A program made the translations under genes and the position numbers. A stretch of 64,000 nucleotides of DNA from NCBI GenBank assembly GCA_010015585.1, contig ML975149.1; one strand, given 5' to 3'. The notes below the pieces were generated by a model. That model did not search any database. It was given only the letters and a program-made list of their open reading frames with translations, and was not told the origin of the DNA. The DNA comes from Eremomyces bilateralis CBS 781.70 (Eukaryota). This document shows, in pieces, positions 12,996-20,358 of this stretch; the first letter of the stretch is position 1, and the number at the start of each line of letters is the position of its first letter.

Positions 12996-14972
12996 CTAAC
13001 GCTATCGTAAAGTCCAATATGGCCACCACTCCGTGCTAGCCGGGTATTGATGATCTCGTGAAATCGAGATCGGATGAAGTTAAGTTGGAGGTAGGGATTG
13101 GGGTCGTTGTTTTCTTCGTCTTAGCATCGGCGAAAGGAGATGTGTTGAGCAGCAAGTGTCTAAGAAACCACTTTGACTTGGGAATCGTAGCCTGTGCCTG
13201 TTGTTCGTGGCCTGGTGACAAGGTCAGTAGCTGAATCGCGGGGACCTCATCCTTTCCGTCAGTGTGAATGAACCCACAATAGAGATCTCCTGCAAATGGC
13301 AGTATTATAGGTACATCAGTAGTAGCCTGAGTCAACAGGATTGACTTAAGTCAACAAGACCAGCAGCCCGTGAAGGTTGGAGATAGACTTTGCGATGGTG
13401 GTTCTGGAAGTGGAGGTCGCGACAGGTCGGAATTGTGCAAAGAGCGTGGGATGGTAGGGTTTCAAAGCGTGCTCGATGTGTCTGTTTACGTGAAACTTCT
13501 CTCTGTAAAGATAAATAGGTCGAGTACACAGGATTCCGTGTTCGATTTGCGCGGTTCGTAGGTGGTGGTACTAGTTACAGAGTCACGATCCTGTGAAGTG
13601 CTTCGTTGTGAATGCACGTGACCTAAGATAGCCACCGTTTCGGCCTCATTGCCTGGTGAAAGTTCTTTCGCCACAGGGACTGGGGAGATCAGATAGTAGT
13701 GCTCCAGACTCCAGAAAGTCGATCAATCATCATCATCACCTAATTTATTTCACATGGTTTTAATCAATACCTGTTAATATTACTACAGCAGGTCCAGCTG
13801 CTATTGAGTCTCGCCATTAGCAGGAACTCAAATGACTGGTCGGTATTGCTATTTTCGTGCAGCATGAGCAAAAGAGACTCAGGACTTGTTTCTCAAAGGA
13901 CGCTCTACATTCCCGATCAAAGCAAATGATAAGCCAAGATGTCATTTTTCCCAGACCTCCCGTTATTATATTCTTTTGATGTATTCAGTATGGACAGTTC
14001 TGGATCTAAAGAGGTTGTTCGTACCCAATTAATATCATTACGCCTGTTCTGAAAGACATATCTCCGTTACCAGTCTCTTGTAGCCTTTCGGATGACTGGT
14101 ATTGCAACGTCGCAACATTGATATGTATTGCCGATTACGTGCCTACGATGTGGATGATGCTTGAATTTTAGTACAAGCTCCCCTTAAGAGCCTTAAGAAT
14201 GTATTTCGGTCGTCTTCTCGGAGCAAAGTGTTTCATATCTCCAACTAAGCACGATCCTGGACAATAGATCTTCCCAGCCAGGAGACAACTTTAGCTGATC
14301 CATGCTTGGCTGTCAGCATGAGGAACGTTTCAGTCCAGATACAAAACCCGACAGGCTGCTTCATTGTCCGGGTTCATCAGAAAATCCCTGGATCATCCTG
14401 TCCTCAGGATTACTGGCGGCCTTCGCGAGACCATAGGGTTATCAGCAGCTCAGCACAGGCAGAGTCCACGGCATTCTGGAACTCCTACCGAAATTGGCTC
14501 TGCACATCACCGTTGAATCTTTGGGCGACCAGCTGAATGGTGCGCCCTCTACTAATTAACCTAATCTGCCTTAAAACTGCATATGTGTATATGACCGACG
14601 ACTACCGAATACTAAAAACATCCACTCCATCATTACTCAATGCTTCTACTTTCTGTTCGGATTTCCTATCATTCCTGTTTATTTAAGTCCAGTTTCTTTT
14701 GATCTCCATAATTCTACACGGTGCTGGTCACTCGGTGTTTCAGATTCCTCCGAGTTTTGCTCCCGAAGTTGGCCAGGTAGATGCTTGTCTCAGGACCGGT
14801 CGCAAGTGCTTCGTCCGCTGCTCAACCCGGCTACGCATCACAGCCGCATTCCGGCGGATTGGGTCTCCTGGGTCTTTGAAGTGGGGACAATTAAACATGA
14901 AAACCTGCAATGAAAGGCACCATGACTTCGTGGACACTGTCAGTGAACCTTCCTGTTCCTATAATAGCAGGC

Positions 14973-16356
14973 ATGTCCGCTGGCGTTCCCCAACATAGGA
15001 ATAACAGTATGTATTTCAAACAGGTATCGATATCAGAGTATAGACGGCGTACCGATCTTCCACCCGGGTACCCAGACAGAATGTCCTGACTCAGGAGCCA
15101 AACACCAGCCTCCTCAACGGGCCAAGTCTACGAGATCGTCTACATCGAGGAACACGTTGAGAAATCGGCGATCCCAAAGCATGGATGTCTCGAGAACCCA
15201 CGCCGTTTCTATCGCGAGTTCCTCATCAACACAGAGCGTCAACGTCCTACCTCCGCCGGCGCCATTCTTTGTCCGGAATGGACGGCGGTATCCGCGCGAT
15301 CGCCCGAATCCACTGCCATGCGACTTGGCCGAGCTTCAGCGGCAGAACTTGCGAACCATGCTGGTCTCTTCGGTTTTGGGGAAGCCAATTTGCTGCCCAC
15401 CGCGATTCCTTCCGAAGACACATCAACTGCGAATCCTGGACATCGGATGCGGTACGGGTTATTGGAGCTATTTGATACACCAGCACCTCGTCTCCTCTGG
15501 ATGGAAAGCGCCGTCATTCATCGGCCTTGACACGGCCCAGTCCGCGCCGGATCTTGGCAAGCAAGGCATGGACTGGAGATTCGTGGCGCACGATCTTCGC
15601 CGTCCGTTGCCGTTTTCCGACTCCCAATTCGACTTAGTAATCATGAAGGACATGTCGTTAGTCACCCCCGTCGGTGAAGGCACGCAGCAACTCCTCGACG
15701 AAACTATCCGCGTCCTCAAGCGCGGCGGCGCGTTGGAGATTTGGGAATGTGACCACGCGATCCGGTGCCTTCAACTGGACCACTCCGCTTCGTTCTCTCG
15801 TACCAGCGAGGAGGAGCTCACGCAAGCGAAGAAAACCGCGACGTATCCCATCAACTCGGCAACAGTTTTCGGGGAGCCACAGAACACATATCTCCACCAA
15901 GCCAGCGCTTGGATCGAAAATATCTTGGACGCGCGAGGGCTCTCGGCAACGCCCGGATCGCGAATGACAGCCGCCCTTCTCCAAGAGCCGGACGATCTCT
16001 GCGAGATAGGGTTCCGGCGCGTGGCCGTGCCGTTGACGGAAACGAGATGGGAGCGAGAATCCGGTATCGACTGGGAATCGAAGATATTCCCAGACCAAGA
16101 GCAACCCACCAAGGACCAAGGAGATGAAGTGCAGAGTGTCTTGACGGACGAACAAGCCGCACTGCGAGCCACGGCGTTGATGACGGTGGTGCAGATACTG
16201 GAAGGGCTGGAGCCGCTGCTTACGGATCTTAGCCGAAAGAACGCGGAGGAATGGGCGCGGTGGTGGTCGGGGATGAAGGGAAATCTCCTGCAGGGACGCG
16301 GTGCGGAACATGGGGAATGTCTGGAGATTGGGGCTTGGTGGGCCAGGAAGCGATGA
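14973..16356 (+). CDS. SAM-dependent methyltransferase, LaeA/UMTA-like
   Basis: PLPCDLAELQRQ, ILDIGCGTGYW, LPFSDSQFDLV, IRVLKRGG. Probable first exon 14973-15006 with phase-matched intron 15007-15094; start uncertain (14922, 14973 or 15181). Confidence 0.85.
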
Positions 16357-16913: not shown

Positions 16914-17201
16914 ATTCCGTTTTCAGTAGGCTCAGGCTCAATTGCGACGACTGTGTCGAGTGGAATTGGAGAATGGTGTTTTGAAAGTTCATGCTGACGA
17001 GAGATGACGTTAATTCTCCCGCCCCACTTCCTGGCAGCGGTAAACAGGAACATCGTGACTTCGCGAGGCCTCGGCCTACCAGACGAGCCATCTTTCAAGC
17101 CTTGAAGCATTTCTTGAATGGAATTGGAAGTTGATACCCCCTGAATTTAGTTCCCCATCGAGTCTATATGCCAATTGATTTTCGAAGTCTTTGATACAAC
17201 C

Positions 17202-18369
17202 ATGAAGTCTCTCCTGCAGCTCCGAGCCATACCGCCAGTCCTTGCCTCACCCCTCCCCCGCCAACCTGTCCCCCTTTATATCAATGGTTTATCTAGCGCT
17301 CAGAACTCTTTAAATATATTAAGGCCTTTGACCACGTCCTCACCAAATCGTTCTTCCGCTCCCTCCCCAGCCGAATCCCAGGCGTTGACCGCTCACCATC
17401 CGCGATGGCTCTCCGCGCTCAAGGAACGGATAGGAACGTGCATCTGCTTCGGCATGAACACGGCGCAGGTAGGCGAGGCATCCGAGATACTAAAAGAGCT
17501 GAGTCGGGATTGGCGGGAACTGGTGGCTGGGAGTGAAGGGTATTTGACGGCGGAGGATCGGAGAGGGCTGTGGAGGCATCGGGTGGTGTGGGGAGAGATG
17601 GTATGTTGAGATTCCGATTGATGGAGTTGGTTCAAGCCGTGTTAATGTTTGATTAGGACAGTATGGTAAGTCGCGTCGACTACAGCATATATCTCCTGGA
17701 CTACTGACCAACTGAAGGGTATGTATTCATAGCATCTGAGATTGGGCATCCGAGATTCCTTACTGGTACTCTAGGCCATGTGAACAACGTGATGTATACC
17801 AGGTATGCCGAATCCGCCCGAATAGAATGGGCGCAGAAGATCGCAACTTTTGTCGACCCTGCCCATGGCGATGAATGGAGAGAGCTGTGGACGCCGCGAA
17901 GTGTAGGCTTGATATTACGGAGTATCAAGACAGACTACAAATTTGTATGTGTTCCGAAGCCCCATTCGCAACTTTAGCGACGAGGTGCGATATATGGATT
18001 GTTGATATTAACCTGTGGCAGCCTATGACATATCCCGACCATGTTACTGTCCTTCACAAGCTCCGCAACGCACCGGATGGGCGAATGGACCATTTCATCC
18101 TCGACGTGATCATCCTCTCCGAGCTGCATCAACGGCCCGCGGCACGCTGCGTGGAGGACATCGTGGTATATGACTACCAGCAGGGGAAGAAGGTGCCGCT
18201 GAAGCCGTTCATGGTTGATATGTTCCACGAGACGTTCCGACTGCAGGAAGCAGCTAAGAAGTCGAACGGCGAAAATATCAGGAGACTTCATGAGCGGGTG
18301 GAGGTGCTGGAGAAGGAAACGTGGGATAGACCGGATGCGAAAGAAGATCTCGGGTCTGCTGCTCCATGA
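17202..18369 (+). CDS. Hotdog-fold (4HBT-like) thioesterase, probably mitochondrial
   Basis: Predicted exons 17202-17600, 17657-17665, 17718, 17775-17944 and 18022-18369 give VVWGEMDSMGHVNNVMYTRYAESAR..GLILRSIKTDYKFPMTYPD..VVYDY. Confidence 0.88.
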
Positions 18370-20358
18370 TCCGGAAATGCTTGAGGATAGATGGATCGGC
18401 AAAGTGTGATTCATGTGGATGTCAAAGGTTATTGGTCGACTGACACTATGTTGATACTTTGATGACGATACATGCATGAAACGGGTAGGGACCACGAAAC
18501 CAAGTTCTCCAATGCGGAGTTTCGAGCATGTCAATAGTACTTAAGAAACCAATGCTTGACTTGCCAATGCATGATAGGTACAGCGTCGGGTGTTCTTATA
18601 CTGCAATAGGCGAACGTGTACGAAGTATTCCGTAGGATATCCTGGTTGAATCCCCCGACTTGTATGAGATCAGGAGCATGTCAAACCGTCTATTCCCGCA
18701 TCGAGAGTCTCGGGTATAAACCATTCCATTGACGTCGGACAAGTTCAAGTCGTGAGACATTTGGAAGCATTGTTGAATGTTGATGCATTTCCCCTCCTGA
18801 ACCGGAAGCCTAAAATGGACGATTCGATGATCTTACATCTCATTCGGAAAAGTCGGCTTCAGCGTGAATTGTCCAATGTCCATGTGCCAGCAGAACGATC
18901 ATCGAAATTCGCTCAAACCGGCCCCGCATGGACGATGATTCGCAAGTCGTGGCTGCAGTGCCCATCAGGATATGCAGCCACACCGAACGAGAGTCCAGAA
19001 TGCAGAAACGCTGGCCTGTGACTGCAGGGCTGAAGACCAGTCATGCCGGTTCCCAGACGGCCATTTAGATCAGACGAGCTAGGAATCCCGTCTATCCAGG
19101 GCCATCCATGAAACCGAAGTTTTCGAAACCGAACAGCAGCAGCGGCGTGGACCAGGCATGGGGTGGTGCAGCGAATCAGTCTGGCGCTGGATGGGGGCTG
19201 CTTCATCAGGGGCGGCCTGGGCGGAGGGGCACTCTAGATGACAATGCTTGGATTTCGCCATCAGTCCGAATTCTGTCCATGAACAAATTTAAGCGGTGAG
19301 TGACTATATTGCTTTCGCAATGGAGAGCACTGCGTCGCTCCATTCCTTTGTTCGCCGCGATCAAACACCTTGGGGGCTACTTCTCGACAGGACCCTGTTA
19401 TCCCAGATCATGGGATTGATATTACGGGTATGTAATCCTGCTGACCATTGATAGTTTAATTATTAGCGATGACGGATGAGAGGAAACGGGAACGATAAGC
19501 ATGCGCTAGACTTCGATTTGGAGGGCGTCCCACTAGGATCGACGGCGCCAGGCCATTAATGGGCGAAGAGGCTGCTGCAGCGACGGGTGCTTACTGCTGT
19601 CACTCCTTAGGGTGTTGGCGGTTTAGCTTACGTAGAGCGACTGGCCGCTGGGGGCGCCTGTAGGTACATCGGAAGCTTTGTGTAGCCGGAGCTTTCATGC
19701 AGTGTGCCTGGGCCCTGGACTCTCTACTGCCTGGACTGGCCCCCGCCGGCTCTTCTCGTGGATGTTTCGTGTGGTGGATAAGTTGGCTGTGGAGTTGAAT
19801 GGGGCGACGTGATACAAATGCCCATTTTCATGCAATGCACCATTTCACATTTGGTTTGGCGAACGAACTGACCAGTATTCTTCAAAATTGAGGGCATGGT
19901 TTTCTTCTTTGTCCACCGTGAATGAATAATACGCTCTTCAAAGAACTGAAACGTCTCCTAATAAGTTACGGCCTTATGAGCACAATAGACTTCGCGCACG
20001 TTGGACTAAAAGCCTAAAAACCCGAAAAACAGCCGAGTTCCATTGTGCACCTAAGAGAGTTAATCGTTCCGACTAATTAATACTGAGGCTGCTGAGGCTG
20101 CAGTGCTCACTTGGCGATTTGCTTCATCTGAACAAGGACCTTACTTTGTCCCTCTCTCTAAACCTTCGATTATACTTCTTCTGGTTTCACCTCCTCCAAT
20201 CCTACGCCACTACTCCTCTCGGATAACCACTCCTCTTCACCCTTCTCATCTCGTCCTTTCTCATCTCGTCCCTTCATCCTGCAGATTTTCCTTACCGTGG
20301 CTCGTCTCGTGGAAACAGTCGAGCCAGATCGGTAGAGGACGTTGTCGGCGCTGCGTTG

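Follow-up and report, generated by a model that had tools for sequence, protein, structure and literature searches.

The window, i.e. the whole stretch of 64,000 nucleotides of contig ML975149.1 of Eremomyces bilateralis CBS 781.70 that was analysed, contains a gene that is predicted to encode a hotdog thioesterase of the 4HBT_2 family and whose parts are listed in Table 1. The spliced coding sequence comprises 927 nt and specifies 308 amino acids without internal stops, with WGEMDSMGHVNN as residues 130-141. The gene is unusual in that two of its exons are extremely short, namely an exon of nine nucleotides and, downstream of it, an exon that very probably consists of a single G. The coordinates that an earlier note on this DNA had given for the 9-nt exon, the introns and the lone G proved correct to the base.

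Table 1. Coordinates of the predicted thioesterase gene and its parts in the window.
Feature	Position	Strand	Description
Predicted thioesterase gene	ATG 17202, stop TGA 18367-18369	+	five exons, four introns
5' UTR	17136..17201	+	transcript contig begins at 17136
Exon 1 (CDS)	17202..17600	+	133 codons, ends ..VVWGEM (TGG GGA GAG ATG)
Intron 1	17601..17656	+	56 nt, GTATGT..TAG, phase 0; missing from the transcript contig
Exon 2 (micro-exon)	17657..17665	+	9 nt, GACAGTATG, Asp-Ser-Met; in the contig as 8 letters plus a flanking G
Intron 2a	17666..17717	+	52 nt, GTAAGT..ACTGAC (17703-17708)..AAG, phase 0
Exon 3 (putative)	17718..17718	+	single G, first base of the Gly codon GGC in DSMG-HVNN
Intron 2b	17719..17774	+	56 nt, GTATGT..CTTAC (17759-17763)..TAG, phase 1
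Exon 4	17775..17944	+	170 nt, GC + HVNNVMYTRYAESAR..DYKF, first half of 4HBT_2
Intron 3	17945..18021	+	77 nt, GT..AG; contig joins 17944 to 18022
Exon 5 (CDS)	18022..18369	+	115 codons plus TGA 18367-18369, second half of 4HBT_2
3' UTR	continues past 18600	+	transcript contig extends further

Some features around the coding region can be mentioned here. The 5' UTR holds a short upstream open reading frame (17168-17194; ATG, seven codons and TGA) that lies in a different frame from the main coding sequence and ends 7 nt upstream of the main ATG at 17202. Past the stop codon the transcript contig continues for at least 231 nt within 18370-18600 and for some 233 nt more beyond 18600, which represents either a long 3' UTR or an overlap with a neighbouring transcript. 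The upstream neighbour on the same (+) strand is a long open reading frame (14968-16356) with class I SAM-methyltransferase domains (Methyltransf_25/31/11). Another neighbouring open reading frame, with a UCH domain, had best database matches of only 28-31% identity, and these were spread over several fungal classes.

The assignment to the 4HBT_2 family is a prediction from profile matches: exons 4 and 5 score 29.2 and 28.1 bits, respectively, against Pfam PF13279 (cut-off 25.5) and cover positions 11-56 (exon 4) and 58-119 (exon 5) of a profile length of 122. The product of 308 amino acids aligns without gaps with the orthologs P0016 (258 aa) and P0019 (248 aa). A search with the last exon as protein query recovered 147 homologs from the Pezizomycotina, the best 120 of which were listed; these homologs carry a precomputed PF13279 annotation and the closest of those listed is 73% identical to the last exon. 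The consensus of the 120 listed homologs (best of 147) reads VVWGEMDSMGHVNN. The D-x-x-G-H-V-N-N signature that the earlier note gave for 4HBT-type thioesterases is indeed there: DSMGHVNN is found in 35 of these best 120 homologs and the solved bacterial thioesterases 5byu and 2fuj carry W-x-D-M-D-A/S-L/M-G-H-V-N-N. The fungal protein and these bacterial relatives therefore have the motif W-x-D/E-M-D-S/A-M/L-G-H-V-N-N in common, whereas the fungal protein adds an N-terminal extension of about 100 residues and a C-terminal tail. The Asp encoded by exon 2 we take to be the catalytic Asp of the hotdog motif. The first 60 residues include only one acidic residue (D+E), five basic ones (R+K) and 13 Ser or Thr residues, so that the N-terminus looks like a mitochondrial presequence.

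Transcript evidence came from one public run stored as contigs, in which 74% of the words sampled from the gene were present. A contig of 1457 nt aligned at an identity of at least 99% on 17000-18600, and it differs from the genome by one letter over 1224 aligned bases that include both UTRs. Since all four introns are absent from it, the contig was taken to stem from spliced RNA and the run, whose RNA label is a guess, was read as cDNA. The aligned pieces are 17136-17601, eight letters that match 17658-17665, 17774-17944 and 18022-18600; in this alignment, G17601 accounts for the opening G of the 9-nt exon and G17774 for the extra G. In the contig, ten bases separate the ATG at the end of exon 1 from GCCAT, i.e. 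the 9-nt exon and one G, which is the mRNA junction that had been predicted. The mRNA thus has exactly one base beyond what the neighbouring exons supply. When G17718 was left out of a script-built coding sequence, the frame shifted and a stop appeared at codon 139, in agreement with the earlier claim that skipping of this base frameshifts the gene. That its inclusion yields DSMGHVNN, as had also been claimed, stands in so far as the extra G is present in the mRNA, but the contig alone cannot say which G it is: because every GT-AG intron starts and ends with a G, the mRNA reads the same with G17718, G17666 or G17774. The retained base would be G17718, a point decided by the comparative data given below and not by the transcript. 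The RNA support consists of this one contig from one run, and contigs drop rare isoforms; the one-nucleotide exon may be used constitutively.

Within the locus itself, the signals point to G17718. It is the only one of the 23 internal Gs of 17667-17773 that allows a GT-AG intron on both sides, and the introns that flank it, of 52 and 56 nt, each have their own donor and branch-like element. Dinucleotide-preserving shuffles (n=20000) of the 109-nt stretch gave an AGGGT with a distance of 40 nt or more to either end in 453 cases, and one that also has a CTRAY ahead of it and a G at +5 of the new donor in 13 of the 20000. A chance origin of the AG-G-GT layout is unlikely. Readings of 17666-17774 as one intron would require TA..AG or GT..TA ends.

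For the comparative analysis, metagenome contigs were scanned, which yielded 176 related stretches, and 80 loci were retained. In each of them, the stretch from the WGEM codons to the His codon was parsed for all GT..AG solutions that leave 12 exonic bases, giving 81 rows in the strict parse (the 80 loci and the window). A one-nucleotide exon was needed in 38 of the 81 rows, and in another 7 an exon of two nucleotides, GG, in the arrangement AAG-GG-GTGAGT..CAG-C or -T. Sixteen rows have a phase-0 intron alone after D-x-M/F, with the next codon whole, and six are intronless in the region; in 13 the WGEM anchor was not found within 520 nt, and one (L044) had no solution. Looser anchoring rescued 8 of the 13 anchor-less rows; five loci (L009, L018, L042, L063 and L079) come with too little upstream DNA for a full classification. 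With the looser anchoring, AG-G-GT is present in 46 rows that represent 32 distinct sequences, i.e. in 45 of the 80 loci and in the window, so that the conserved AG-G-GT that had been expected at orthologous loci was found. The neighbouring elements recur as well: the position of intron 1 is also occupied by an intron in many orthologous loci according to the GT-AG parse, D-x-M exons of nine nucleotides are found in orthologs, and the position of intron 2a is common to the loci that have this intron alone.

The intron bodies around AG-G-GT diverge among the orthologs, yet the core is kept. An A follows the GT (position +3) in all 32 distinct sequences, even though the search pattern left this position free, while the positions farther out from AG-G-GTA vary freely. 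The upstream acceptor is AAG, with A at -3, in 27 of the 32. The donors of intron 2b always start with GTA (GTAC 16, GTAT 9, GTAA 6 and GTAG 1 among the 32 distinct sequences); a G at +5 is present in 4 and missing from 28 of them (the donor in the window is GTATGT), and most of the 2a donors have the usual G at +5. The AG-G-GT sits 48-96 nt upstream of the last acceptor, with a median length of 54 nt for the orthologous intron 2b, and intron 2a measures 49-192 nt in the AG-G-GT rows and about 344 nt in L012. For five loci (L022, L023, L029, L024 and L028) an ad hoc score preferred another one-nucleotide exon, C (giving DSMR), over the G, and L015 has two candidate AGGGT sites, of which the strict and the looser parse each chose a different one.

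The presence of the core follows the reading frame. Where the last AG leaves two nucleotides before the His codon, an internal AGGGT is found in 37 of 38 distinct sequences (the exception is L044), and where it leaves a whole codon, in 1 of 13 (L071/L074, in which the AGGGT is a chance match); the rows are kin by descent, so that these counts measure conservation and not independent events. In this count L033 was wrongly anchored inside intron 2b; the GT-AG parse shows its GG exon.

Two further observations concern single loci. In L047 and L049, a divergent pair that is about 48% identical to the rest of the family, AG-G-GTAAGC holds a one-base exon, and the codon begun by this base becomes GTC (Val) or GCC (Ala) in place of a Gly codon. 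In L044 only 34 nt lie between WGEQ and the His codon, and the one-nucleotide exon is gone; what is left are ~13 nt from the start of 2a and ~10 nt from the end of 2b, a remnant of 23 nt (25 nt including the exon bases GT) that is too short to splice and breaks the frame. A pseudogene, a deletion allele and a misassembly are all conceivable here. L042 encodes the same protein as L044, but has only 12 nt of upstream DNA, and L017, a relative of L044, has the full layout.

The one-nucleotide state is distributed by lineage. One of the loci with this exon (L010) is 88.7% identical to a protein of Pleopsidium flavum (Lecanoromycetes), another (L026) 89.3% identical to a Melanomma protein (Pleosporales), and three (L051, L052 and L054) share 95.8% identity with a protein of Alternaria alternata. 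Judged by protein identity, the loci with a one-nucleotide exon are nearest to named Lecanoromycetes and Dothideomycetes proteins, Alternaria being counted among the latter. The 12 rows on the opposite side of the tree all lack the exon, and in another tree these rows group with named Sordariomycetes and Leotiomycetes proteins.

Natural variants occur in several branches. In L055, L068 and L075, intron 1, the 9-nt exon and intron 2a are kept and exactly intron 2b is missing, with the G and the rest of its codon fused (..AG-GGN); their nearest proteins are from Didymellaceae (94.5% identity over 55 aa, 82% and 89%, respectively), and L068 and L075 are nested in a group of 12 one-nucleotide rows (SH-aLRT 86). 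L038, L039, L041 and L043 have no introns in the region, not even one separating the two domain exons; their sister group (support 80) consists of the one-nucleotide loci L040 and L046. Such a pattern resembles a wholesale loss of introns mediated by a reverse transcript. The seven loci with a GG exon (L033, L050, L053, L056, L057, L058 and L059) form one branch (support 98) and are 92-96% identical to Aureobasidium proteins. Their exon lies between the codons for D-S-M and that for His, and the intron after it is displaced downstream by one base, to phase 2 as against phase 1. Parsimony required seven changes for the four states, which is compatible with one origin of the one-nucleotide state; the order of gains and losses that we infer is to be read in view of the weak deep forks, many of which have a support below 80.

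Taken together, we consider it very probable that G17718 is a genuine one-nucleotide exon of a nuclear 4HBT_2 thioesterase gene in a filamentous ascomycete. The obvious rival is a single intron of 108 nt with non-canonical ends (17667-17774 with TA..AG or 17666-17773 with GT..TA), for which the internal AG-G-GT would be irrelevant. It predicts the same mRNA as the contig, and the aligner indeed drew the joint in this way, as a combined skip with 'TA..TA' ends. Nevertheless it needs dinucleotides that U2 spliceosomes hardly use, and it leaves unexplained why AG-G-GTA is constant in 32 of 32 distinct sequences with differing intron bodies, why AGGGT goes with the missing base (37 of 38 versus 1 of 13) and why there are lineages that miss exactly the 2b segment; we regard it as improbable. 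That the copy in the window is a frameshifted pseudogene and the transcript derives from another, intron-poor copy (a paralog or retrocopy) deserves hardly any credence, given that the contig equals the window but for one letter over 1224 bases including both UTRs, that the same layout recurs in 45 further loci and that the five-exon coding sequence is intact.

An alternative donor at 17661 (exon GACA), spliced to the acceptor at 17774, would make a product with DSHVNN that lacks Met-Gly, either as the main or as a regulated form. The earlier note had raised this form, and it was right that it is in frame: GTATGG is a possible donor and the product would count 306 aa. The form is nevertheless absent from the one transcript contig (contigs do drop rare forms), a GT at this place is confined to 4 of the 20 distinct 9-nt exon versions (18 of 76 rows), and D-S-H-V-N-N occurs in none of the best 120 of the 147 homologs, all of which makes it highly improbable. 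A stwintron-like route, also proposed earlier, is not needed and was rejected: introns 2a and 2b have complete signals of their own, each with its GT and AG uninterrupted in the unspliced sequence, the excision of either makes no new splice site, and one extra G is retained in the mRNA.

With G17718 as an exon, two ordinary U2-type introns, each with a donor, a branch-like element and an AG, would abut on this base. Because the splice sites around it physically overlap, introns 2a and 2b would have to be excised in succession; with the 2a acceptor and the 2b donor inside one splicing-factor footprint, simultaneous assembly is implausible. Sequential removal could proceed by intron definition, much as in a recursive-splicing ratchet but with one base left over, and either order of removal would give the identical mRNA. 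Four exons, contributing WGEM, DSM, G and GC-HVNN..., would then jointly build the catalytic motif WGEMDSMGHVNN.

The arrangement is most probably inherited and not accidental: a phase-0 intron after D-x-M is widespread, and a phase-1 intron one base downstream is common to the lineages nearest to Dothideomycetes and Lecanoromycetes. Later, 2b would have been precisely lost in some lineages, and a one-base shift would have produced the GG exon in an Aureobasidium-like lineage. As to how 2b arose, an insertion, a duplication and the rescue of a 1-nt deletion were considered. A more far-reaching proposal, which we put forward tentatively and regard as rather doubtful, is that AAG-G-GTA is ancient and constitutive, older than the split between Dothideomycetes and Lecanoromycetes, and kept for hundreds of millions of years, with a splice signature that is conserved and unusual. 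The splice signature hints at a special hand-over between two spliceosomes, and the enzyme might be switched off through skipping of the one-nucleotide exon, which brings the stop at codon 139.

The exons concerned are also a source of error in public gene models. Among the best 120 of the 147 homologs, the motif WG[ED][MQ]-D-x-x-x-H[VI]NN is intact in 59 models, in 48 HVNN is kept and the sequence ahead of it garbled, and in 13 HVNN is absent. The claim that annotation pipelines miss the exon consequently holds for the 61 of these listed models that are wrong at the motif, but not for the 59 intact ones. Since the presumed catalytic Asp and the Gly after it come from the micro-exons, roughly every second listed model lacks an intact active-site motif. 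The Aureobasidium models P0026, P0030 and P0031 are garbled exactly at the point of the GG exon. The Alternaria model P0050 reads WGEMSRLCVGQHGHVNN; from a comparison with the near-identical locus L051, its ..QHG-H tail would arise if the 9-nt exon were read in a frame shifted by one base and spliced straight to the exon after 2b, in which case the one-nucleotide exon was probably skipped and the frame rescued through another upstream acceptor.

To our knowledge, few single-nucleotide exons have been documented gene by gene. A full-text literature search with wordings for one-base exons found no report on this thioesterase. One of the closest known cases is that of the CYP621A P450 genes of Fusarium, where a one-nucleotide exon with an AGGGT core was inferred with RNA reads (Nelson & Syed 2026, PMC12940212). 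According to the relevant passages of that report, the two cases have in common a fungal nuclear gene, an AG-G-GT core and a single G in the Gly codon of a conserved motif; they were both recognized from out-of-phase boundaries, orthologs and RNA, and both were missed by annotation (PMC12940212). They differ in the gene family and in the place of the G, which is the middle base of the Gly codon in CYP621A and the first base here. As the same passages have it, the CYP621A exon occurs only in Fusarium and Nectria, whereas the thioesterase loci are nearest to two classes, and the thioesterase, unlike CYP621A, has a 9-nt exon directly upstream as well as loss and two-nucleotide variants (PMC12940212). 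There, the one-nucleotide exon was proposed to be the rescue of a 1-nt deletion (PMC12940212).

In the APC11 gene of Arabidopsis, a single-nucleotide exon (A333) was proven by base substitution and deletion combined with cDNA sequencing (Guo & Liu 2015, PMC4674806). In the part of that report concerned, this constitutive exon lies between two GT-AG introns, as does the one described here, and sequential removal by intron definition and recursive splicing was proposed, a mode that by analogy is likely for the thioesterase as well (PMC4674806). It differs in being a plant gene with the base A, proven by substitution (PMC4674806), where the case for the G of the thioesterase comes from comparison and the contig.

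At the genome scale, the long-read annotation of the basidiomycete Coprinopsis cinerea lists 13 one-nucleotide and 57 two-nucleotide exons, on account of which ultra-short exons can be seen as a known, rare class in fungi; the passages in question give a genome-wide list, with no per-gene comparison or mention of a thioesterase (PMC12230235). That one-nucleotide exons are very rare, as the earlier note had it, agrees with these cases (APC11, CYP621A and the 13 in Coprinopsis): they are a known but rare kind.

The stwintrons of the Pezizomycotina are related in another way. They are spliced consecutively, and the precise loss of a constituent at the DNA level has left introns one base apart (Fekete et al. 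2017, PMC5587772). As described in the passages at hand, they have abutting or nested U2 introns and consecutive splicing in common with the thioesterase gene, and their loss and shift parallel the lineages with one nucleotide, with two nucleotides and without 2b (PMC5587772). In a stwintron, however, the internal intron splits the donor, branch point or acceptor of the external one, which comes into being only once the first has been excised, with no exonic base in between (PMC5587772), whereas here one base is kept.

The thioesterase is thus an addition to the known, rare set of one-nucleotide exons, and it stands out by the breadth of its conservation, the adjoining 9-nt exon, its place inside a catalytic motif and the natural variants in which it is lost or shifted. 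Wrong models of this kind affect function prediction, orthology tables and structure models of the thioesterase family. The comparative series, from one nucleotide and two nucleotides to the loss of one flanking intron and the loss of all introns, indicates that a one-nucleotide exon can persist over long evolution, and the natural variants form controls for splicing experiments. If the reading as an ancient and constitutive exon is true, the gene would provide a ready-made system for the study of the intron-defined processing of abutting introns.
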